Source: an uncultured cyanobacterium
GTDB taxonomy: Bacteria; Cyanobacteriota; Cyanobacteriia; CAKZMO01
Direction of reading: 5' to 3'
Length of the DNA: 64,000 nt
NCBI GenBank assembly: GCA_963719515.1
Contig: CAVRCJ010000017.1
Span: 1 to 64,000, forward strand
Position numbers and translations under genes: made by a program. Shown in pieces: positions 1 through 12,052 of the stretch (the first letter of the stretch is position 1; every line of letters begins with the position of its first letter). The notes below the pieces were generated by a model that worked only from the letters and a program-made list of their open reading frames with translations, was not told where the DNA came from and made no database searches.

Positions 1-39
1 AGCCGCTGGACGCAACTTGTACTGATAAGTGACTTTCAT
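1..39 (-). CDS. tnpB: IS200/IS605 TnpB (RNA-guided endonuclease), N-terminus only; runs off the left edge of the window
   Basis: Minus strand from ATG at 39 reads MKVTYQYKLRPAA, resembling the HTH_OrfB_IS605 start (xxYxYRLxP). It is divergent from an RHH gene and an IS605-type end. Only 13 codons are visible. Confidence 0.7.
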   Translation of the reverse strand, partial: MKVTYQYKLRPAA

Positions 40-72
40 GCAATAATGATAGCATATTGACATCAGAACGAC

Positions 73-255
73 ATGCAGCAAATAACTATTAGAGCCGCTG
101 ACAGAGAAAAGCAGCATCTTGACAAGTATTGTGAGATGACCGAAAGAACTATCAACGATGTCCTTAGGGAGTACATCCGAAGTTTGGCCGTCTCCGGGGC
201 ATTGAGCCCCATCGACGACCGCGACTCTCATCCCGACGCTCACCCTGACGGGTAG
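73..255 (+). CDS. CopG/ribbon-helix-helix DNA-binding protein inside the IS605-type element
   Basis: MQQITIRAADREKQHLDKYCEMTERTINDVLREYIRSL fits the RHH pattern (beta strand followed by two helices). The C-terminal tail reads into the element end. Confidence 0.7.
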   Translation: MQQITIRAADREKQHLDKYCEMTERTINDVLREYIRSLAVSGALSPIDDRDSHPDAHPDG

Positions 256-279
256 AGCGCGGGGCTTCCTGTCTAGTAG

Positions 280-1056
280 CTAAAACAGATCCTTCATACC
301 CCGCAGTTTTCCAAACACCCGCGCGGGCTCCTGCAGACCGACGCGCTTCTGTAGGGCCGGCTGGTCCCAGCGCAAAAACGGGTTGGTCTGCTTTTCGACG
401 CCGATGGTGGTGGGAACCGTCGCCTTTCCGGCCTGACGCTCTGCCCTGACCTGGTCCAGACGCTGCGCCAGCGCTCCGTTGTCCCTATCTACCGTCAGCG
501 CAAACTTCAGATTGTTGAGGGTGTATTCGTGGGCGCACCACACCTGCGTCTCTTCGGGTAGCGATCGCAGCTTTGAGAGGGAGGACACCATTTGGGCAGG
601 CGTGCCCTCGAACAGCCGCCCACAGCCGCCCGCGAACAGGGTGTCGCCGCAAAACAGGTGCCCCGTATCGCCCTCACCCAAACCCGGCTCAAAGTAGTAG
701 GCAATATGGGCTTTGGTGTGGCCGGGCACAAAGTAAACCTGGGCCGAGCGATCGCCGAACGTCACGCGATCGCCCTCCTCCAGATACACCTGCTGCCCCG
801 GAATTCGTCCGCGATCGCGATCGCCCCCAAACACGACGGCGTTGGGAAAGGCTTTTAGCAGCTGGGCGTTGCCGCCGACGTGGTCGCCGTGATGGTGAGT
901 GTTGAAGATAGCCACTAGCTGTGCGTCGAGTGACGTCAGCTTTCGGAGGACTGGAGCCGCTTCTGCCGGGTCAACAACGGCAGCAATGCCTTGCTCGGCG
1001 TCGTGAAGCAGAAAAATGTAGTTGTCGGACAGAACGGGAAGGCGATAGATATTCAC
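280..1056 (-). CDS. gloB: Hydroxyacylglutathione hydrolase (glyoxalase II)
   Basis: [30 protein letters not shown] and EKQTNPFLR motifs. Probable GTG start at 1056. Confidence 0.95.
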
Positions 1057-1272
1057 AAACTTCAAGTGGCGATAAACTGCAGGCCAAGCGGAGACCGGAT
1101 TTACGAAGTCTTTACCCAAAGCTTATCTGAGATTCGCTTAAGCCAGACTAAAGTTGCCGATAATAGTGACCAAACGGCGATTTTTAGCTTTAAGCTCCAG
1201 TCACCGAACGAATAGCGGTCTACGTGACTGCCATTGTAGTGACTACCGTTATATTTACTCCTATTTTTCGCT

Positions 1273-1476
1273 ATGGCATTCCTCCAGAGCGCAGCGCCCG
1301 ATCAAATTCAAGCCCGTTTAGCGCAGATCGAGTCTACGGGGAAAGTTAGTCGATATGAGTACTTCCAACTCATGTCGCGCCTGCTGGCAAATCAAGCGCT
1401 GACGTCCGAAGAGTCTGCTCGAATTAACCAGATCCTAGATGCCGTCAGGCTCAACCACATCCAGCTCGTGGACTAG
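1273..1476 (+). CDS. Small hypothetical protein
   Basis: 67-aa ATG ORF in an intergenic position. Its C-terminus (INQILDAVRLNHIQLVD) resembles small cyanobacterial hypotheticals. Confidence 0.6.
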   Translation: MAFLQSAAPDQIQARLAQIESTGKVSRYEYFQLMSRLLANQALTSEESARINQILDAVRLNHIQLVD

Positions 1477-1544
1477 CAGTCGATATCGCTTTGCTGTCGC
1501 CCAGTAAGGCGTATCGGCTAGCGTCAGCCTAGCCGCAATTATTC

Positions 1545-2573
1545 ATGACTCAATACAGGAGAAAACCTTTGCCTCAAACAGCGCCGACGATTCTCGTTAC
1601 CGGGGGAGCGGGTTATATTGGCTCCCACGCCGTCATGTCTCTCCAGCAAGCTGGATATTCCGTCATCATTCTAGACAACCTCATCTACGGCCACGAAGAC
1701 TTGGCCAAGACCGTCCTCAAAACGCCTTTAATCGTGGGTGACACCAACGATCGCGCCCTCTTAGACCGGCTGTTTTCCGAGCACGATATCGCGGCGGTGA
1801 TGCATTTCGCGGCCTACGCCTATGTAGGCGAGTCGGTAACGGACCCCGCGAAGTACTACCGCAACAACGTCACCGGGACCTTAACATTGCTAGAGGCCAT
1901 GGTGGCCGCCAACGTCAAAAAGTTTGTCTTCTCCTCCACCTGCGCCACCTACGGCGTGCCCAAGTCAATTCCGCTAGTGGAAGATCATCCCCAAGATCCC
2001 ATCAATCCCTACGGCATGACCAAGCTGATGGTAGAGCGCATCCTGGCCGACTTTGACCGGGCATACGACCTCTCTTCGGTGTGCTTTCGCTACTTCAACG
2101 CTGCCGGAGCCGACCCCGAAGGCCGCCTGGGTGAAGACCACAACCCCGAAACTCACCTGATTCCCCTCGTGCTGCAGACGGCCCTAGGGAAGCGTGAGGC
2201 CATCTCCATCTACGGCACAGATTATCCGACCCCCGACGGCAGCTGCGTTCGCGACTATATCCACGTCTGTGACCTAGCAGATGCCCACGTGCTGGGTGTT
2301 AAATACCTACTAGAGGGCAACGATAGCAATGTCTTCAACCTGGGTAACGGCAATGGATTCTCCGTACGTGAGGTGATCGAAGCCGCCCGCGAGGTGACGG
2401 GTGAGCCGATCAAAGCCATCGAGTGCGATCGCCGTCCCGGTGACCCCCCCAGCCTGGTGGGTAGCGCCGAGAAGGCCCACTCTGTGCTGAACTGGCAGCC
2501 CCGCTACGCAGACATCCGCGATATTATTGCCCACGCTTGGCAGTGGCACCAAAATCGCCACGGGCAAGCTTAG
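1545..2573 (+). CDS. galE: UDP-glucose 4-epimerase
   Basis: TGGAGYIGSH, YGMTK, RYFNAAGA, RDYIHVCDLA and RRPGD motifs. Confidence 0.95.
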   Translation: MTQYRRKPLPQTAPTILVTGGAGYIGSHAVMSLQQAGYSVIILDNLIYGHEDLAKTVLKTPLIVGDTNDRALLDRLFSEHDIAAVMHFAAYAYVGESVTDPAKYYRNNVTGTLTLLEAMVAANVKKFVFSSTCATYGVPKSIPLVEDHPQDPINPYGMTKLMVERILADFDRAYDLSSVCFRYFNAAGADPEGRLGEDHNPETHLIPLVLQTALGKREAISIYGTDYPTPDGSCVRDYIHVCDLADAHVLGVKYLLEGNDSNVFNLGNGNGFSVREVIEAAREVTGEPIKAIECDRRPGDPPSLVGSAEKAHSVLNWQPRYADIRDIIAHAWQWHQNRHGQA

Positions 2574-2764
2574 CGTGAGGTCAGCGGCCCCTTCAATAGA
2601 GCCTGAGGGGCTGCACTGGCTTTCGTGACTGGGCGCTGGGCCGGTTCCTCAGCGTGCCAGTTGGAATAGCCCCACACCATCAGCGCTGTCTCCCGTAAGA
2701 TATCTGATAGAGTCTTCGATAGGTTGTAATTCCCTATTGAAACTGCGCGTTTAACACAAGAACT

Positions 2765-3322
2765 ATGAATCTAAGAGCTCCCTCCCTCCAACCCACCGCC
2801 CGCCGCGCTCTAGCGGCGCTGGCGGCAGCAAGCTGTCTTCTCGGATCCTGGGCAACGGTGAGTTTTGCTCAAGGTCTACCTGGATTCACCATTTTTAGCG
2901 GTGTCGACCGTGAATATGAGCTTGGGTATCGACTCGATGGTGGGGGAGAAATTAACCGCTACGATCGCTATCACCTCCGCATTCCGGCAGATAAGCTGCA
3001 GACAGCGGGCGGCATGTTCGTTGTCACCTACCCCGACACCTATGAAGGAATTCTCGACCCTAGCGACATCGAGATCCGGGTCAGTGGAGATGCCGTTCCG
3101 CTAGAAGAGATTACCTGGAACGAGGAAGATCGCTTTGTAGAAATTATTCCCGTAGAAGCTATTCCCGCCCTCAGCCGCGTCGAGATTGTGTTCTCCAACG
3201 TCCGCAACCCTCGTCGCACCGGCACTCACTATTTCAACGCCCTGGTGCGCGCCCCCGGAGAAGTGATTCCGCCCCAGTACGTGGGCACCTGGATTCTTAG
3301 CTTCGGACGCCATACGGACTAA
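2765..3322 (+). CDS. DUF2808 family secreted protein
   Basis: Signal peptide, GLPGFTIFSG, NVRNP..GTHYF and YVGTW. Lies upstream of rpmH, the usual cyanobacterial position. Confidence 0.8.
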   Translation: MNLRAPSLQPTARRALAALAAASCLLGSWATVSFAQGLPGFTIFSGVDREYELGYRLDGGGEINRYDRYHLRIPADKLQTAGGMFVVTYPDTYEGILDPSDIEIRVSGDAVPLEEITWNEEDRFVEIIPVEAIPALSRVEIVFSNVRNPRRTGTHYFNALVRAPGEVIPPQYVGTWILSFGRHTD

Positions 3323-3449
3323 TCCCTCAAGGGACTTAGGTTAGCGCAGCGCGGGATCTCTCCGTATAGGCTCAGAACCTGCGCGGAGGCCGTCTGTGTC
3401 GTGGTAAGATAATGGACTGCTAATTCACTTTTATTTAGAGGAGTTTCCC

Positions 3450-3590
3450 ATGACAAAGCGTACGCTTGGTGGAACGAGCCGCAAGCGCAAGCGCGTTTCG
3501 GGATTTCGAGTGCGGATGCGTACCCACAACGGACGCCGCGTGATCACGTCGCGGCGAAAGAAAGGGCGGGCTCGTCTATCGGTTTCGTAG
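3450..3590 (+). CDS. rpmH: 50S ribosomal protein L34 (not in the ORF track, 46 aa)
   Basis: [46 protein letters not shown], with a GAGGAG RBS, upstream of rnpA. Confidence 0.97.
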
Positions 3591-3632
3591 TTGAGGTGCC
3601 GCGCTGCTCAGGCGCTATGAGTTTTAGACGCT

Positions 3633-4040
3633 GTGGCACTGCCATCGGTCCATCGGCTTAGGCAACGCCGAGAGTTCGACCGTTTATATCGCCAAGGAAA
3701 GCGCGTTACGGCGCACCATTTTGTGCTGCGATCGCTGCGTCAGCCCCACGAAGCGGTAAGTCTAGGGGAGGCTGCCCCCTCCCGGCAGCAGCCCAGTCGA
3801 ATTGGCGTTGCTGTCAGCACTAAGGTCAGCAAGCGCGCCGTTGTTCGCAACCGCATTCGGCGGCAGGTTCAGGCTGCGATACATCAGCTTTTACCTCAGA
3901 TGCCAGGCGGCTGGCTGATTCTTATCAGCGCTCGCTCGGCTGCTACAGAGTGCGATTATTGGCAGTTTCTGAGAGAATTGGAACAGTTATTGATGCGCGC
4001 TGAGGTAATCCATGGGCATTCGGGAAGAGGTGTACTTTGA
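3633..4040 (+). CDS. rnpA: Ribonuclease P protein component
   Basis: RIGVAVSTKVSKRAVVRNRIRR motif; follows rpmH. Confidence 0.95.
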   Translation: MALPSVHRLRQRREFDRLYRQGKRVTAHHFVLRSLRQPHEAVSLGEAAPSRQQPSRIGVAVSTKVSKRAVVRNRIRRQVQAAIHQLLPQMPGGWLILISARSAATECDYWQFLRELEQLLMRAEVIHGHSGRGVL

Positions 4041-4410
4041 GGGCGGTCCTCACGTAGGGGATCTGATTATCAATGGTTTGTTGGGGTTCACCATCATTTG
4101 TCTGCCCCTAACGGTGGGAGCCATCGTCAGAGCAGTCTGGCTCCGCTACCGCATTACAGACCGGCGGCTCTCCGTGACCGGCGGATGGATGGGTCGCGAT
4201 CGCTCGGATATTATCTACTCTGAGATTGCTCGCGTGGTGACCGTTCCCCGTGGATTGGGGGCCTGGGGAGACATGGTGGTTACCCTAAAAGACGGCAGTC
4301 GACTGGAGCTGCGGGCGGTGCCTAAATTCCGCGAAGTCTACGACTACATCAACGACAAGCTAAGTGAGCGCGCCAAGAACGCCAGCGGCGCAGCGGGTGA
4401 GCGGAGCTAG
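4012..4410 (+). CDS. Bacterial PH domain (YdbS/bPH_2-like) membrane protein
   Basis: MGIREEVYFEGGPHVGDL, a hydrophobic segment, then RYRITDRR. Sits between rnpA and yidC. Confidence 0.85.
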   Translation: MGIREEVYFEGGPHVGDLIINGLLGFTIICLPLTVGAIVRAVWLRYRITDRRLSVTGGWMGRDRSDIIYSEIARVVTVPRGLGAWGDMVVTLKDGSRLELRAVPKFREVYDYINDKLSERAKNASGAAGERS

Positions 4411-4642
4411 CGTCGGAGCCGCTGCACCTGTTCATTGGGGCATCTGCAGCTTCAACGGCAAGGCCGATAAGCTGCAGCGAGAATATTGAGAGGTCTGACT
4501 GAGAGGTCTGAAAAGTATACAGGGGACGGCAGCATAAAGACTCTGTCTACCTAGGACGCGCCTGAACAGGTTGGACATAGACTAGACTAAGGGCAGTTGG
4601 CCTCTTGTGCAGGTGAGCAATCGTAACTAATCAATAAAGCGC

Positions 4643-5884
4643 ATGGATTTTGGTATTGGATTTCTCTCGAACAACATCATGTTGCCGATCCTGGATTTTT
4701 TCTACGGGGTCGTGCCTAGCTATGGCTTAGCGATTGTTGCGCTAACGCTAGTAATTCGATTTGCGCTTTACCCGTTGAGTGCGGGTTCAATTCGCAACAT
4801 GCGCCGCATGAAGGTTGCTAACCCGGTGATGCAAAAGCGGGTCAAGGAGGTTCAGGGAAAACATAAGGACGATCCTGCCAAGCAACAAGAGGAAATGTCC
4901 AAAATCTACAAAGAGTTTGGCAATCCCCTAGCGGGCTGCTTTCCTGTGGTGCTGCAAATGCCCATCCTCTTTGCGCTGTTTGCGACTCTTAGAGGATCGC
5001 CGTTTGCCGACATCGATTACACAGTCAACCTAGAAATTTTGCCCCAGGCACAAATTGAGCAGGTTCAGCCTAGAGCCTACGTCTCGAAGCCCAAAAACAT
5101 TTACATTACCGACGGGGTCCACGTCCCGCTGGTGGCGGTGATTCCCGGTGGTACCCGCCTTGGAGTAGGCGAGAAGACTCGCGTAGGATTTCAGTCTGAG
5201 GACGGAACGCAGCTCAATCAGCTTGTTGCCCAGTACCCCGAGACTGACCTAGTGCCGGTCTGGCAAGTGACCTCGGGTCAAGAGCTCGTCAGCTTTGATG
5301 AGAACGGTAATCTAGAAGCTTTAGCGCCAGGAGAAGTTACGCTCCAGGGTGAGGTTCCTGGCCTAGCCGCGAACAAGGGATTTCTGTTTATCAAGGCGCT
5401 CGGACGAGTTGGGGTGACGGGCGAAAACGGCAGCATCAACTGGGATATCCTCGGGATGGTGCTGTTCTTTGGCATCAGCCTTTACGTCAATCAGCTGCTG
5501 TCGGGCAGCGGCGGTAGCTCCGGCAATCCTCAGCAGGACACGGTTAACAAAATCACGCCTGTGCTGTTTTCCGGGATGTTTCTGTTTTTCCCGCTGCCTG
5601 CCGGCGTGCTGATGTACATGGTAATTGCCAACATCTTCCAAACCGCTCAGACGTTCATCCTTTCGAAAGAGCCGCTCCCGGAGAACCTGCAAAAGATTGT
5701 GGATGCTGCGGCTAACGGCGACGACGACCGCGAAGCGCTTCCCTTTGAGCCGAGCAGCGCTAAGAAAGAGGAAAAAGATGCCGGTAAACCTGCCGCAAAA
5801 TCTGAGCGCCGCTCGAAGCGCAAGGCTAAGCAGGCCAAGCAAACCCAATCTAAGCCAAGCCAGTCTAAGGCGGCGAAAAAGTAG
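4643..5884 (+). CDS. yidC: Membrane protein insertase YidC
   Basis: [20 protein letters not shown] and [15 protein letters not shown] motifs. Confidence 0.96.
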
Positions 5885-5919
5885 ATCGACGAAACAGGGC
5901 GGAATAGGGGCCAAGTACC

Positions 5920-6429
5920 GTGACAGATGGGACAACTCGCCAAATTCATCGGGCTCAGCAGTGGCTTGAGCAGCTGCTCAACCTTGCGGGCGTGACCGCC
6001 CCCGTCGAGGCAGACCCGTCTCTAATCGAGAGCGAGGGCAGCTGTTGGCTGATCATCGACGGTGAGGCGCTCTCTGAAGCTCAAACGCAGCAGCTTCTAG
6101 GTAATCGGGGCCACGCCCTAGACGCGATTCAGTACCTTGCCAATACGACCCTCAACATGGAGGGCTCCCCCGATGAGCAATGTGCCTATACCATTGAACT
6201 CAACGGCTACCGAGCCCAGAGGCAAATTGAGCTAGAGGCGATCGCCCGTCAGGCAGCCCAGCAGGTTCGAGACAGTGGCGAGGCCTACGAAATTCCTTCC
6301 CTATCCTCAGCGGAGCGGCGGCAGGTACATACGCTGATGAAGGACTATGAGGATTTAGAAACCGAAAGTCAGGGACGTGAGCCCGATCGCCGCCTAGTTG
6401 TTAAGCGACGGGAGGTTCTAGAACCATGA
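5920..6429 (+). CDS. Jag/KhpB-like KH-R3H RNA-binding protein
   Basis: LGNRGHALDAIQYL and SSAERRQVH (R3H) motifs; follows yidC. Confidence 0.88.
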   Translation: MTDGTTRQIHRAQQWLEQLLNLAGVTAPVEADPSLIESEGSCWLIIDGEALSEAQTQQLLGNRGHALDAIQYLANTTLNMEGSPDEQCAYTIELNGYRAQRQIELEAIARQAAQQVRDSGEAYEIPSLSSAERRQVHTLMKDYEDLETESQGREPDRRLVVKRREVLEP

Positions 6430-6923
6430 CGCCTATTTACATCCCCAGCCTGCTGAAGGCCCCCAACAAGACCGAAGAGGTCAGCTTTCACGAACGGTTG
6501 CCCAACCTCAATACGCTGACCCCCGTTCAGGGAATTGTTCAGGTGACCCACGGCGGCAACTTTTTGCGGGTCCAGGGCAGCGCCGAGGCCATCGTCACCC
6601 TCACCTGCGATCGCTGTCTCAATCAATACAATCACCGCCTAGTGTCGAACACCTCCGAGATTATCTGGCTGGAAACTTCTAACACAGCCCAAGAGTTAGA
6701 ACCCGAGCGAGAGCTGTCGGTGGACGAGCTGGTGGAAACGCTGTCTCCTATGGGACAGTTTCACCCTGGCGATTGGATCTATGAACAGCTATGCCTTGCT
6801 ATCCCTCAGCGACAGCTGTGCGACAGCGGCTGCGGCGGTATCTCCTGGGAGTCCTCCACGCCAAATCCAACGGACAGTCGCTGGGCCTCTCTAGAAAAGT
6901 TTAGAGAGAACCTGCTGAACTAG
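6426..6923 (+). CDS. YceD/DUF177 family protein
   Basis: CDRCL, EQLCLAIP..LC...C and DSRWASL motifs. Confidence 0.9.
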   Translation: MTPIYIPSLLKAPNKTEEVSFHERLPNLNTLTPVQGIVQVTHGGNFLRVQGSAEAIVTLTCDRCLNQYNHRLVSNTSEIIWLETSNTAQELEPERELSVDELVETLSPMGQFHPGDWIYEQLCLAIPQRQLCDSGCGGISWESSTPNPTDSRWASLEKFRENLLN

Positions 6924-7041
6924 ATGCTGCTCCACCGCTATAGCCTCTCACAGATAAGCCAAAACTATTTTGGGAGCTGCAGCCTTCTTAAAGGGAAACT
7001 GCAGCTCCAAACCCAGACAGGGCTTTACAGCCCAATACGCC

Positions 7042-8535
7042 ATGAGTTTTAGCGACGACTTCGAGCTGCTGCTGCGGGCTCGCTATCCGGTCCTGTATCT
7101 TCCTACGCTAGAGGAAGAGCGCGTTGAATCCACTATCAGAGCCGTCGCCGACCGCACCAGTCGCGGCGTCTACACCTGGGATTTTGTAGACGGCTACCAG
7201 GGCAACCCCACAGATGAGGGGTTCGGCAGGCGTAATCCGCTGCAGGCCCTAGAGCTAGCAGAAAAGCTGCCTGCATCAGCTCCCGCTATTTTTGTGCTGC
7301 GGGACTTTCATCGGTTTCTCGACGACATATCGATTGCCCGCAAGCTGCGGAACTTAGCGCGGTTGCTTAGGTCTCAGCCCAAAAATGTGGTAATTCTAGC
7401 GCCGCAGATTCAAATTCCAGCAGAGCTGGCGGATCTGATTACGGTACTGGAATTTCCGCTGCCTACCCTACCGGATATTCGGCAGACCCTGTCACAGCTG
7501 CTCAGCGGCACTGATAGCGCCTTGAACGCCCAAGATGTAGAGGAGCTGGTACGCTCCTGTCAGGGCCTTTCCATGGAGCGCATTCGCCGCATTATTGCCC
7601 GCGCTGTGGCTACCCACGGGGAGCTACGTCCAGAGGATGTGGATCTAGTGCTGGAAGAAAAGCGCCAAACCATTCAGCAGACCCAAATTTTAGATTTCTA
7701 CCCTACCCAGGCCAGCATTTCCGACATCGGCGGCCTCGACAACCTCAAGGATTGGCTGCTGCGACGCGGCAGCGCTTTTTCTGAACGGGCGCGGCAATAC
7801 GGTCTCCCCTATCCCCGAGGGCTGCTGCTGCTGGGCATTCAGGGGACGGGAAAATCCCTTACCGCCAAGGCGATCGCCCATCACTGGCACCTGCCCCTGC
7901 TGCGCCTAGACGTGGGGCGGCTGTTTGCGGGCCTGGTCGGCGAATCCGAATCGCGAACGCGGCAGATGGTGCAGCTTTCGGAGGCCATGGCCCCCTGCAT
8001 TTTATGGATTGATGAGATTGATAAGGCGTTTGCGGGTGCCGACGGGCGGGGCGATTCGGGCACCACGGGGCGGGTGTTTAGCACCTTTATCACCTGGCTC
8101 TCTGAGAAAACCTCTCCGGTCTTCGTCGTCGCCACCGCCAACAACATCCAGGCGCTACCCCCCGAGATGCTGCGGCGTGGCCGGTTTGATGAAATCTTTT
8201 TTGTCGGCCTGCCCGTTCAAGACGAGCGCAAAGCGATCTTTAAAGTCCACCTCTCCCGCCTGCGTCTCCACAACCTCAAAAGCTACGATCTAGACCGTCT
8301 GGCTTACGAGACCCCTGATTTCTCCGGCGCTGAAATCGAGCAAATTATTGTCGAAGCCATGCACACGGCCTTTAGCCAGGAGCGAGACTTTACCACCGAA
8401 GATATTCTAGAAGCGGCCAGCCAAATTGTGCCCCTAGCCCGCACGGCCCAAGAGCAAATCCAGGCGATGCAGGACTGGGCGGCTTCAGGGCGAGCGCGAC
8501 TGGCGTCGCGAGTGTCATTTCCTCCTCGGCTATAG
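7042..8535 (+). CDS. ycf46: Ycf46-like AAA+ ATPase
   Basis: [28 protein letters not shown] and [14 protein letters not shown] at 7042. Confidence 0.9.
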
Positions 8536-8556
8536 TCCGCTGGGCGCATTCTTTAG

Positions 8557-8948
8557 CTACTAGACAGGAAGCCCCGCGCTCTACCCGTCAGGGTGAGCGT
8601 CGGGATGAGAGTCGCGCTAGCCGAAGTGCGCCCGCAAAATGATGCACAGCGGATAGTGCGCTCAGCGCTGAGGCTAGCAGTTGGTATGATAGAGATAGCA
8701 AGGTGATACACCCCGCAAAGAGTGTGACGGGCCCGTAGGCGAAAGCTGCAAGTCACCCGTTCCTCAGTTTGCAAATGTATCTGCGACACATAGTGCGTAT
8801 CCTCCCTCGCGGAGATGAAAATTCAAAACTCTGCCGTGGGGCATCAGGCGGAGTATAAACCTATCTCAGGATATGTCCCGGCAATAGCTGGGAGTCACTG
8901 AGGAAGCCCGCGCTGTACAGCTTGCTGTCAGCGTCGGGAGGATGTCAC
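8557..8948 (+). mobile_element. Non-autonomous IS200/IS605 mini-element (PATE/MITE-like), 392 bp, no transposase
   Basis: Left-end hairpin ~8573-8604, identical to the copy at the window start. Right-end hairpin CCCG-CGCTG-T-ACAG-CTTG-CTGT-CAGCG-T-CGGG (8907-8938) followed by AGGATGTCAC. Preceded by TTTAG (8552-8556), with no target duplication. Confidence 0.85.
8682..8690 (+). promoter_or_regulatory. Putative extended -10 promoter (TGgTATGAT) inside the mini-element
   Basis: TG-n-TATGAT immediately upstream of the structured region. Confidence 0.5.
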
Positions 8949-8968
8949 TAAGCTTGTTTGCAACAAGC
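8697..8968 (+). ncRNA. Candidate omegaRNA/reRNA-like structured RNA with flanking guide
   Basis: Several stems, including a GAAA tetraloop at 8741-8744, CTCTGCC/GGCGGAG, TCCCGGC/GCTGGGA, and long-range TTCCTCAGT (8760-8768) / ACTGAGGAA (8897-8905). Ends in the right-end hairpin. Confidence 0.55.
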
Positions 8969-9026
8969 GCACTGGCAACAGGCGTATTAGCTGCGGGCGC
9001 GTTTATCGGCCTCGGAGGACGAGATA

Positions 9027-9485
9027 GTGCTAAGAGTATTACAGGGACTGCTGGGGGCGTGTCTTGCGATCGCGGTTTTGTTCGGCTCGGGTGTGGTGGC
9101 TGCTCGCTACTTCATGACGCGTTTGACGGCCCTACCGCCCCGGCCCACTTTTGCCGAAGAGGCCCCACCAGAACCCGCTGCCCCGCCGCCGTCAGAACCC
9201 GCTGCGCCAGCGGAAGCAGTCGCCCCACCAGAACCCGCTGTCCCGCCAGAAACAGACCCCGCTGCGGATAACCCCAACGCCTTTCAGGCGCGAGTTGTAC
9301 AGCCTATTGGCCTTATCCTGCGAGAAGGGCCAGACGTCTCCACCACTCAGCTGGGCGGCGTCGAATACAACGAAGAGGTGACCGTTCTCAGCGAGAGCGA
9401 AGACGGCCAGTGGGTGCAGGTGCAGCTTTTGGGTAGCGAGGTGGTGGGTTGGGTGAAAGCGGGTAATACGGAACGGATTGAGTGA
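9027..9485 (+). CDS. Membrane-anchored SH3-domain protein
   Basis: N-terminal TM segment, Pro/Ala/Glu linker, GLILREGP..WVQV..GWVKAGN (SH3b). Confidence 0.85.
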   Translation: MLRVLQGLLGACLAIAVLFGSGVVAARYFMTRLTALPPRPTFAEEAPPEPAAPPPSEPAAPAEAVAPPEPAVPPETDPAADNPNAFQARVVQPIGLILREGPDVSTTQLGGVEYNEEVTVLSESEDGQWVQVQLLGSEVVGWVKAGNTERIE

Positions 9486-9629
9486 GCCGCAAATATTAAC
9501 TTAGTTTAAACGAACTAAAACTTTAGTTGCAAACTGCCTTCTGTTTTGGGGATGGCCTCGACGACCATGGTAGCGTGAGCACTATCCAGATTTTCATGTT
9601 TGTGCTCTCAGACAGGCCATAACAAACCC

Positions 9630-9800
9630 ATGTACAACAAAGATACTCAAAAAGACTGGTGGACAGCGGCGATAACGGCGGGGCTAGGGGCCGGTGTCGT
9701 GACGACCCTAGCGGTGAGCCAGGGACAGAATCCCCTGGCTGCACTGGCGGTTACGGCGGTGGCTACGGGTGCCGCTCTAGCAATTGACCACTATTTGTAG
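9630..9800 (+). CDS. Small hydrophobic hypothetical protein
   Basis: 56-aa ORF with two hydrophobic helices (GQNPLAALAVTAVAT), followed by a terminator. Confidence 0.7.
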   Translation: MYNKDTQKDWWTAAITAGLGAGVVTTLAVSQGQNPLAALAVTAVATGAALAIDHYL

Positions 9801-9840
9801 AGCCGTCGAGGCGGCTCAAGACTATCTATCTCGATGAATC

Positions 9841-9868
9841 AACAGTCCTACTCAAGGACTGTTTTTTT
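9841..9868 (+). terminator. Rho-independent terminator
   Basis: AACAGTCCT-ACTCA-AGGACTGTT followed by a T run. Confidence 0.8.
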
Positions 9869-10170
9869 ATTGACCTACAGACTTAATTGAAGATAAGGTC
9901 GCGGCTTAGAGTAGTACAGTACTCAGTGATAGCGACATCGCGCGTGACAGCGACACCTTGTCGATTGTATTGACTCAGAATAAGGCTCGCCAAACTGGAT
10001 AAGCGGCCCGAATGCCCGATTTATCCCGACCCTCCAAGACTGCTTCGGTAAAGTGTAGAGCCTCGTCATCTACGCTTGGAGCGATCCTCTGAGGCGATCT
10101 CTACTGCCCCCAACTCGCGTCCGCTTAGTTTATTGCTGTAGATTGCCCATCTGAAACCTGGTGCCGACCC

Positions 10171-11361
10171 ATGATCATCATTCGACCTCAGCCCAATCCC
10201 CCGCTGCAACGTACTTTAGTCGGCCTCATTATGACGGGCAGCATGCTTAGCGGAGTCTGTGCCGTTGGGCTTAGAGCCGCAGCGGCTCCTGCGATCGCCG
10301 CCCCTGTCAACGCCAGCGCCCCATCTGCTAGCCGAGGGCTTCTAGCTCAAGGAATTACGGTCATTGAGCGGGGCAGCACTGGGGAGCTGGTTTCTGAGCT
10401 GCAGCGTCGCCTCAGCCAGCTTGGATACTACGACGGTCCCGTCACCGGTTTCTTTGGAGAACTCACGGAGACCGCCGTCATCCGCTTTCAGCAAGACCAA
10501 GGTTTAGCAGGTGACGGCATCGTGGGAGACTCAACGGCAGATGCGCTGCGGGACTCAGGTTCTGCTTCCGATGACGGTCTGCTGCAGGACGGGGCCACGG
10601 GGCCACGGGTGACCCAGCTTCAAGAGCAGCTGACGACCCTTGGATTTTACGAGGGTCCGATCACCGGCTTTTTTGGAGAGTTGACTGAGGCCGCCGTTAT
10701 TCGCTTCCAAGCAGCTCGGGGTTTAACCGCCGACGGCATTGTAGGCGCTAGCACGGAAGCGGCGCTCAGCGAAACCGGAGAACAGTCTTCTAATGAGACA
10801 GAGCGAGTGCCAGACCCCACCGATGGGCTACTGGAGCGTGGCGAGGTCGGAGAAGCCGTGACTGACTTGCAGCGGCGCTTGACGGCGTTGGGCTACTACG
10901 ACGGACCCATTGATGGTCGCTATGGTCCCCGCACCGAAGCCGCCGTGTCTCGTTTTCAGACGGAGAATGCCCTAACCTCGGATGGCGTTGCCGGTCCTGC
11001 TACCATTGCCGCTGTCGATAGCGCCCCCCGATCGTCTGAGACGGCGCAAGCGTCAGCAGCGCAGCCCTCCGCAGCTCAAGAGGTCAGCGCGACACGGCCA
11101 GCCAGCCCCGCTCCAGCACAAACCGAGGTTGTGCCCATCCAGCCGGCAGGCCCCATTGTGCCCACCGAAACCGCCATCGTGCTGCCCGTTCGCGTCGAAC
11201 TTGCCCCTGGCGATATTCGTACGATTCAGGCTCGCCTGCAGGACCGAGGCTTCTACAACGGCCCTGTCGATGGGGTTCTAAACGACGCAACGCGACGGGC
11301 TATAGCGACAGCCCAGCAGGCTTATGAGGTGAGTCCTGGGGACTTGGTCTTTAGCGAGTAG
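10171..11361 (+). CDS. Multi-repeat peptidoglycan-binding domain protein
   Basis: Four PG_binding_1 repeats (LQRRLSQLGYY..GFFGELTETAVIRFQ..DGIVG). Confidence 0.9.
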   Translation: MIIIRPQPNPPLQRTLVGLIMTGSMLSGVCAVGLRAAAAPAIAAPVNASAPSASRGLLAQGITVIERGSTGELVSELQRRLSQLGYYDGPVTGFFGELTETAVIRFQQDQGLAGDGIVGDSTADALRDSGSASDDGLLQDGATGPRVTQLQEQLTTLGFYEGPITGFFGELTEAAVIRFQAARGLTADGIVGASTEAALSETGEQSSNETERVPDPTDGLLERGEVGEAVTDLQRRLTALGYYDGPIDGRYGPRTEAAVSRFQTENALTSDGVAGPATIAAVDSAPRSSETAQASAAQPSAAQEVSATRPASPAPAQTEVVPIQPAGPIVPTETAIVLPVRVELAPGDIRTIQARLQDRGFYNGPVDGVLNDATRRAIATAQQAYEVSPGDLVFSE

Positions 11362-11401
11362 GCTGCCGGTGTGTTTTGCTGGCGTGTTTTGCTGGTGTAT
11401 C

Positions 11402-12052
11402 TTACTGGCGTGTCTTTGCCTGCCGCCGCTTCACCATGACGCCGACCCAGCGCTTCCACTGGGCGAAGGCCTCGTCGCTGGGCGCTGTCTGCTGCCAGGC
11501 GGGGCGCGCCATTAGACGCATCCGCCACTGGTCTAAACCAGGGTAGTTCTCAAGGGGAAGGCCAAGGCGGTGCATCAGGGGGAGCGTCGCGCCCGCTACG
11601 ATGTCGGCTAGAGAGAGGGAATTTTCTCCAAAGTAGTCTTTTTGCCCTAGCTGGGCGGTAAGAAAAGTGAGGGCAGGGGCAAGCGGCTCAGCCCAGGATT
11701 CGGGCTGGGGGGCCACCGCGAGGTGCGGGATCCTAGTCACCAGCTCGTTGACCGTCACCATCTGCACCATGCGCATTTGAGCCAGCGCTTCAGGCGTCGG
11801 AGGAGTCAGTGAATGGTCTGGAGATTTGGCCTCTAAATAGTCCAGTATAGCCAGAGACTCGATCAGCGTCAGGTCGCCGTCCACGAGGACGGGGACGTGG
11901 TGGAATGGGTTGAGGGCGGAGAACTCGGGCTGGCGCTGCTCTCCTGCCTTGAGGTCAACCACGACCCGCTCAAAGTCTAGTCCTTTTTCTAGCAAAGCGA
12001 GCCAAACGCGACGGGCAATGGGGGATAGGGGATGGTAGTGAAAAGTCAACAT
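11402..12052 (-). CDS. Glutathione S-transferase family protein
   Basis: LNPFHHVPVL, IESLAILDYL and SLADI motifs. Confidence 0.92.
   Translation of the reverse strand: MLTFHYHPLSPIARRVWLALLEKGLDFERVVVDLKAGEQRQPEFSALNPFHHVPVLVDGDLTLIESLAILDYLEAKSPDHSLTPPTPEALAQMRMVQMVTVNELVTRIPHLAVAPQPESWAEPLAPALTFLTAQLGQKDYFGENSLSLADIVAGATLPLMHRLGLPLENYPGLDQWRMRLMARPAWQQTAPSDEAFAQWKRWVGVMVKRRQAKTRQ

Follow-up and report, generated by a model that had tools for sequence, protein, structure and literature searches.

The window, which is the whole 64,000-nucleotide stretch of DNA analysed here (positions 1 to 64,000 of contig CAVRCJ010000017.1 from an uncultured cyanobacterium), contains a gene-less IS200/IS605 element of 392 bp with a TnpB-type omegaRNA scaffold at its right end, lying between ycf46 (an AAA ATPase gene, 6970-8535) and an SH3 gene (9027-9485). 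We consider it probable that this mini-element is non-autonomous, borrows both TnpB and TnpA in trans, makes its own RNA, and uses that RNA to direct cutting of its own empty sites. The features of the element and its surroundings are listed below.

1..284, minus strand: left part of the cognate RHH and tnpB element, cut by the contig start
8552..8556, plus strand: TTTAG target motif with core TTAG; host DNA, TnpA insertion site and predicted TAM
8557-8948, plus strand: gene-less IS200/IS605 element (392 bp), 3' of TTTAG and ending in TCAC, with boundaries common to 53 copies
8557..8612, plus strand: left end, with the DNA guide tetranucleotide AAGC (8569-8572) and a subterminal hairpin (8573-8604, ssDNA fold)
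8613..8681, plus strand: spacer with an imperfect hairpin (arms 8616-8629 and 8665-8678); the fastest-changing part, with 16 of 69 columns different in the related genome G004
8682..8690, plus strand: putative extended -10 promoter TGGTATGAT, with no -35; start predicted near 8697
8697..8826, plus strand: 5' RNA domain (about 130 nt), a long irregular hairpin followed by two small hairpins
8705-8710 with 8776-8781 and 8715-8719 with 8768-8772, plus strand: hairpin of the 5' domain, with a CCCC bulge at 8711-8714
8827..8948, plus strand: TnpB omegaRNA scaffold (122 nt), 65.1 bits to the R1 model, with the frame of the TnpB C-terminal tail kept
8829-8835/8847-8853, plus strand: scaffold stem 1
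8865-8869/8898-8902, plus strand: scaffold stem 2, after a lengthened linker
8876-8882/8887-8893, plus strand: scaffold stem 3
8840-8844 with 8942-8946, plus strand: putative scaffold pseudoknot
8903..8948, plus strand: right end, with the DNA guide GAAG (8903-8906), a hairpin (8907-8938, ssDNA fold) and the cleavage motif TCAC (8945-8948)
8949..8968, plus strand: predicted guide in the host flank, placed from the shared boundary; 8952-8958 folds with 8962-8968

The original prediction placed a 392 bp element after TTTAG, with TCAC as its own right end, and expected multiple copies with different flanks. Both are borne out in the source genome (G000), where a whole-genome BLAST search identifies 53 full-length copies of 391-393 bp with 96.7-100% identity. 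The motif on the 5' side is TTTAG in 47 of the 53, GTTAG in three and CTTAG in three, every copy terminates in TCAC, and the right flanks are 53 different sequences; these shared limits and differing flanks fix the boundaries at 8557-8948. The mini-element evidently spread to its 53 sites recently. As claimed earlier, it has no credible open reading frame; there are short frames of 20-78 aa, and these are altered or broken among G000 and its relatives G002 and G004, so that a small-protein gene was rejected. G002, G003 and G004 have the ycf46 and SH3 neighbours with no element between them, but this interval is too diverged for the exact empty joint to be confirmed there (in G001 the two genes are on separate contigs). 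For seven copies the empty joint falls within a long open frame, and a paralogue aligns without gaps over the joint for two of these, so that insertion is precise and without target duplication; the paralogue alignment for a third copy in a split frame has gaps over the joint.

We note that in 13 of the 53 copies the insertion point coincides exactly with a stop codon contained in the motif (seven at TAG on the same strand and six at TAA on the other), with a background of 111 among 1500 sampled TTTAG sites, and that the element end provides an in-frame TGA in opposite-strand insertions, such that the gene stays whole. The copy at G000:C3:185815-186206 interrupts an ABC-transporter-like frame (so labelled from a motif) that runs for 559 codons over the empty joint. 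Another, at G000:C6:428067-428458, sits inside the tnpB gene of a different and previously damaged tnpA-tnpB element, and a search for a sister target of its guide found none.

The ends of the mini-element are related to those of a local tnpB family. As originally described, both ends have subterminal hairpins, and over its first 65 nt, TTTAG included, the sequence does not differ from that of the element at window 284-220. Because that element is cut by the contig start, its tnpB gene is known from sister copies, which are 1483 bp long and code for a 60-aa RHH-like protein and a 398-aa TnpB (Pfam PF01385, PF07282 and PF12323); the family sharing this left end also has a version of about 1800 bp in which a Y1 tnpA takes the place of the RHH-like gene. 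The 60-aa gene (window 73-255) is divergently oriented to tnpB, and the left end and the tnpA frame both share its last codons; it has no Pfam match, and the RHH label is that of the original prediction. The comparison with the cognate tnpB 3' end proposed at the outset shows 87% identity over 85 nt between the right ends. Cognate-type left ends are preceded by TTTAG in 17 cases, GTTAG in three and CTTAG in one.

In IS608 the tetranucleotide at the foot of the left hairpin pairs with the target, and this rule predicts that the two change together. They do so across the families compared here (TTAG/AAGC, TTAA/AAGT and TGAG/CAGC), identifying TTAG as the core of the target. The near-terminal palindromes are akin to those of IS605-type elements, and terminal inverted repeats are absent. 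Judged by sequence, the mini-element is a PATE in every feature tested, having palindromes, a fixed motif, no target duplication, no transposase, copies with greater than 90% identity, and a TnpA presumed to act in trans. Excision and insertion would be catalysed by the cognate TnpA, as the shared ends suggest.

Matching TnpB and TnpA proteins were expected, and intact genes for both are in the same genome. There are 22 hits to the cognate tnpB, 14 of which are strictly full-length and intact, and the TnpB has the RuvC residues D205, E289 and D368; intact copies of tnpA are located at C10:313467 and C1:305097, and there is a third copy on C5. The mini-element therefore shares its genome with a compatible, intact TnpB having the same target motif. 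In the fragmented draft assemblies of G002 and G004, both of which carry the element, we found no TnpB with more than 40% identity to the cognate.

A structural model (R1) was made from an alignment of 19 distinct tnpB-bearing ends, taken from 28 loci in a right-end scan of GTDB genomes after removal of loci without an ORF, fragments at contig edges, duplicates and a single end that had an insertion. Although derived from tnpB ends only, it matches 8827-8948 with 65.1 bits over the whole model (positions 1-114), in support of the claim that a protein-free element contains an intact omegaRNA scaffold. In a scan of the genome the top scores are those of 21 tnpB ends (72.7-79.9 bits), followed by the 53 mini-element copies (57.1-65.1 bits). 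The pairings CTCTGCC/GGCGGAG and TCCCGGC/GCTGGGA, picked out previously, are real scaffold stems. Stems 1 and 3 differ in their letters from the cognate with the pairing kept, and both lie outside the DNA hairpin needed by TnpA. Two-sided changes are present in 12 of 28 named pairs among 33 ends, a number that none of 500 shuffles reaches and that kinship inflates; the pseudoknot has five possible pairs, with 95% of cells paired in 33 sequences, and changes that are one-sided only.

In the predicted full transcript the four scaffold stems each have a probability of 0.75-1.0, and the fold of 8697-8968 is better than those of all 200 shuffles (z -3.59). The earlier description of about 250 nt of dense pairing is correct in this respect, but the omegaRNA scaffold itself is only about 120 nt. 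The 9-bp long-range helix proposed earlier (8760-8768/8897-8905) does not survive: the complement exists, but the mean pair probability is 0.04-0.06 and 5 of 200 shuffles give a helix of equal length, and it is disfavoured (4-6% of the ensemble) because it competes with the native stem 2. A different 8-bp helix (8799-8806/8936-8943) has a probability of 0.5-0.8 (51-81%) in the untrimmed RNA, where it could block the pseudoknot strand; it has a mismatch in G002. General pairing of the 5' domain with the scaffold was considered and rejected, as none of 14 other cassettes tested beats its own shuffles. Compared with the cognate ends, the scaffold is 15 bits lower in score and its linker is longer, at 18 nt as opposed to 12 nt, which might hinder TnpB loading.

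Two other types of RNA element were considered and rejected. IStrons combine a group I intron with an IS605 element and are expected to have a terminal G; the mini-element ends in C and has no Rfam match at E<=1. A HEARO or IscB omegaRNA likewise has no Rfam match here, and the RNA fits TnpB ends instead. Rfam searches gave no match in window 1-12000, and across 13 loci returned only two tRNAs and one hit with E=0.47.

An extended -10 had been proposed at 8682-8690, and the motif TGGTATGAT is indeed present, but a strict sigma-70 scan of the plus strand lists no promoter, there being no -35 match. The promoter call thus depends on the extended -10 together with its pattern of change in the relatives, the homologous sequences being TGCTATACT in G002 and TGGTATAAT in G004, with variation at the free positions alone. 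A TAnnnT box is seen by eye at a similar place in many other ORF-less cassettes. We also note a weak sigma-70-like site on the minus strand (window 8852-8879), whose transcript would run antisense over the 5' half of the cassette.

The 5' domain between the putative promoter and the scaffold is without a counterpart in the local tnpB elements compared. The interior (8625-8828) shows no similarity to any of four local tnpB families (19-97 of 100 shuffles score as high), the original view having been that it is unrelated to the RHH gene of the element at the window start, and we therefore reject a simple deletion derivative of a local tnpB element. The interior is present in three of 17 genomes of the order (G000, G002 and G004); in 401 class genomes there are four further hits of 24-39 nt (E about 0.006), treated as chance, and five metagenome hits to a 19-mer of the domain are all chance matches in unrelated DNA. 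Searches of viral contigs with two patterns gave no hits, and plasmids gave no match. The three homologues fold into a single long irregular hairpin in which every pair is kept, with a two-sided change at 8708/8778, a paired insertion and five changes on one side; with three rows only, this covariation is not significant (179 of 500 shuffles are as good). Relative to G004, the 5' domain has 16 of 135 columns different versus the 16 of 69 in the spacer (p=0.04), but there is no such contrast with G002.

A second ORF-less family, with six copies in G000 and members in G185, G189 and G260, shares with the mini-element a short 5' motif and the CCCC bulge, on either side of which are two helices with entirely different letters. 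A descriptor covering both families recovers 50 mini-element copies and the six second-family copies (82 anchors; reversed genome 0/12), although this comparison is partly circular, and a one-mismatch pattern of the 5' motif occurs in 57 of 401 phylum genomes and gives many hits in the controls as well, 29 of the loci being without an omega scaffold. A model of the second-family 5' domain (R2) places the mini-element domain correctly with E=3.4 only, and a search of 150 genomes found nothing outside G000; shared ancestry is thus not established, and homology of the two 5' domains is plausible, not proven. Our guess is that the 5' domain is most likely a leader for an RNA made without a tnpB mRNA, acting in 5'-end protection, in folding or as a processing substrate.

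Related cassettes are present elsewhere. The mini-type stem-1 pattern, which gives no hits in the controls, is found in 11 of 401 class genomes, and at the 19 loci inspected there is no upstream tnpB beyond the retained tail. Most of these loci have a left end, a -10 box, a domain of 100-200 nt and a scaffold, and several have an internal deletion or no recognisable left end. The 5' domains are of at least four unrelated types, one of which has five two-sided pairs among seven sequences. Stem 2 lies 11 nt from the stem-1 loop in 18 of 18 tnpB ends and 12 nt from it in the cognate, as compared with 18 nt in 12 of 13 ORF-less cassettes and 19 nt in the remaining one. These 13 cassettes are from G000 and seven other genomes (two further cassettes have another scaffold type) and were chosen by their stem-1 pattern, which biases the first 8 bases of the spacing and leaves its total length unaffected.

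The cassette right ends in G040 and G075 resemble the local tnpB right ends, and this together with the constant longer spacing is better explained by one shared lineage that has adapted to its local partners than by repeated new deletions. We raise tentatively, as a possibility that we do not favour, that this is an old and separate cyanobacterial lineage of guide-RNA transposons, with its own scaffold variant, an exchangeable 5' module and TnpB captured in trans, perhaps pre-empting the guide of the tnpB element itself and driving across chromosome copies. If so, they would parasitise an RNA-guided nuclease by means of RNA alone, and would offer a natural model for a TnpB guide that loads better in trans.

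Several other elements were seen in the course of this comparison. G000 contains at least three more ORF-less IS605-type families, for example at L129 (C3:19000-19600), L130, L177, L131 and L178, of about 454 bp (18 copies) and about 422 bp (six copies) along with two single relatives of about 440 bp; all have a -10 box and a longer omega-like end, and their 5' domains differ. In contrast to the cassettes, a 408-bp TTTAA-family element (G000:C10:338620-339032) is a plain internal deletion product with tnpB coding sequence. In the loci L103 and L104, ORF-less cassettes of other genomes lie no more than about 100 bp from a tRNA gene (near 1700-1810), and a Nostoc record (L087, ~480-600) has within its omegaRNA scaffold a sequence like the 3' end of a group II intron.

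A different view of the mini-element is that it is purely a DNA-level parasite in which the two ends alone matter, the rest (promoter, 5' domain, scaffold) being passengers left over from an old tnpB element. TnpA alone would account for its copy number, the scaffold retains the TnpB tail frame, and the 5' domain is not more stable than shuffled sequences (MFE z -0.49). In the register of stem 1 the domain also has 47 of 130 ungapped identities to tnpB, a number reached by 42 of 10000 shuffles; most of the identities fall in the 21 nt beside the scaffold, and a very old origin from tnpB coding sequence may account for them. However, neighbouring registers give 41-42 identities, and profile comparisons with 15 tnpB ends do not reach significance (131 and 153 of 1000 shuffles). 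Passengers are also hard to reconcile with two-sided changes that preserve stems 1 and 3, with a -10 that varies at its free positions only, and with a fixed longer spacing recurring in the 13 ORF-less cassettes, and we regard this explanation as unlikely.

It is distinctly unlikely that the 5' domain carries a second function, either as a cargo RNA with its own partner or through another TnpB-like protein, with the omega scaffold as carrier. Such a role would suit the finding that the position is occupied by at least four unrelated 5' domains among the cassette families, some with covariation, and the longer spacing that all measured cassettes share and no measured tnpB end has. No partner gene accompanies the cassettes, however, the domain has neither an Rfam match nor complementarity to cognate elements, and unrelated domains at one place would fit a generic 5' stabiliser too.

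We return to the reading in which a gene-less element borrows TnpA and TnpB and has its empty sites cut. TnpA-type ends and precise insertion after TTAG with no target duplication are its starting point. Transcription driven by the extended -10 would then begin at about 8697, cross the right end and continue into host DNA. By analogy with published TnpB biochemistry, the cognate TnpB would bind the scaffold of about 120 nt at the 3' end, probably trim the 5' part, and take the first 12-16 bases of the flank as guide. The only target would be TTAG plus the flank, that is the empty site of the same copy; TnpB would cut chromosomes from which the element had been excised or into which it had never inserted, and recombination would copy it back. 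Cyanobacteria are often polyploid, and with multiple chromosome copies per cell new insertions would be fixed in the same way. TnpB is reported to trim the 5' side of its RNA and to tolerate 3' padding (PMC10278001), which makes a leader and the lack of a terminator compatible with its use; retention by cutting of the excised site (10.1101/2023.03.14.532601) and drive over multiple DNA copies, in that case plasmids (10.1101/2025.02.20.638934), have also been described.

The original prediction held that each copy carries a different guide, giving a dispersed repertoire. The first part is correct, there being 53 different flanks, but the repertoire does not extend beyond each copy's own empty site: elsewhere in the genome, no TTAG-adjacent site matches any of the 53 guides with fewer than 3 mismatches in 16 nt, and guides aimed at other genomic sites were rejected on this basis. 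The guides are thus likely to keep and spread the element rather than to serve the host. For the guide at 8949-8968 no other TTAG-adjacent match is closer than 4 mismatches in 16; it forms a 7-bp hairpin (-5.9 kcal/mol), the second most stable of the 53 guides, and may work poorly as predicted by its fold. Very unlikely is a decoy or regulator, in which TnpB is sequestered by the 53 scaffolds or its complex is kept inactive by the 5' domain; the excess of scaffolds (53 to 21 cognate ends), the guides without targets, a 5' segment able to pair with the 3' end of the scaffold, and the cis inhibition by upstream RNA reported for AmaTnpB (PMC10278001) would agree with it, but long helices of this kind are not general among cassettes, occupied sites normally leave guides without targets, and a selfish element would gain little.

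The core idea of a protein-free omegaRNA element is already published, as PATE-like elements and as stand-alone omegaRNAs, and what may be new here is the leader domain and the variant scaffold spacing. A folded 5' domain of about 130 nt and a stem-1-to-stem-2 spacing of 18-19 nt were not found in print, and a literature search spanning titles and the openings of abstracts, outside subscription papers and supplements, returned no leader domain or longer spacing in such elements. Should these features improve loading in trans or stability, they would show how a guide RNA came to be separated from the gene of its nuclease, as on the way to CRISPR-like systems, and could be of use in designing TnpB guides; should both be inert, the mini-element would be an ordinary, though abundant, PATE. 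With 53 young copies, intact cognate TnpB and TnpA, and a defined motif, it offers a clean test system.

Among known systems, PATEs were defined in Haloquadratum walsbyi, for example HqIRS71 (Dyall-Smith et al. 2011, PMC3119063). As described there, these resemble the mini-element in having near-terminal palindromes, no terminal inverted repeats, no target duplication, copies more than 90% identical, and a retained C-terminal segment of tnpB; they are, however, deletion products of local IS605 elements, whereas here about 200 nt of the interior are unlike any of the local elements compared, and divergence from the cognate has left the structure of the retained end intact. PATEs often encode omegaRNAs used in trans (Meers et al., 10.1101/2023.03.14.532601), and the PATE-like elements of Geobacillus stearothermophilus in that report similarly have IS605-type ends, no protein genes, and an omegaRNA requiring TnpB and TnpA in trans. 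Its accessible text does not describe a promoter of their own, a 5' domain or altered spacing, and the mini-element differs further in that the gene-less form (53 copies) exceeds the tnpB family (21 right ends).

The stand-alone omegaRNAs of OMEGA systems are also similar, being mobilised without an effector and working in trans in effector-bearing genomes, with a role there called unknown (Altae-Tran et al. 2021, as summarised in PMC10691335); a leader domain is not described in the accessible parts of that paper. PMC13565253 and 10.1101/2023.11.20.567912 report, as separate points, a PATE with IStron ends, the activity of an omegaRNA in trans, and the Arc-like gene. Finally, the mini-element is like the ISDra2 omegaRNA (Nakagawa et al. 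2023, PMC10097598) in scaffold size (about 116-122 nt, with 116 nt in ISDra2) and in its four stems; in ISDra2 the stem-1 loop also forms a pseudoknot with the bases immediately preceding the guide, and the putative pseudoknot here has the same layout. The dispensable 5' region of the ISDra2 RNA, as reported, is tnpB coding sequence, whereas that of the mini-element is a non-coding folded domain with its own putative promoter.
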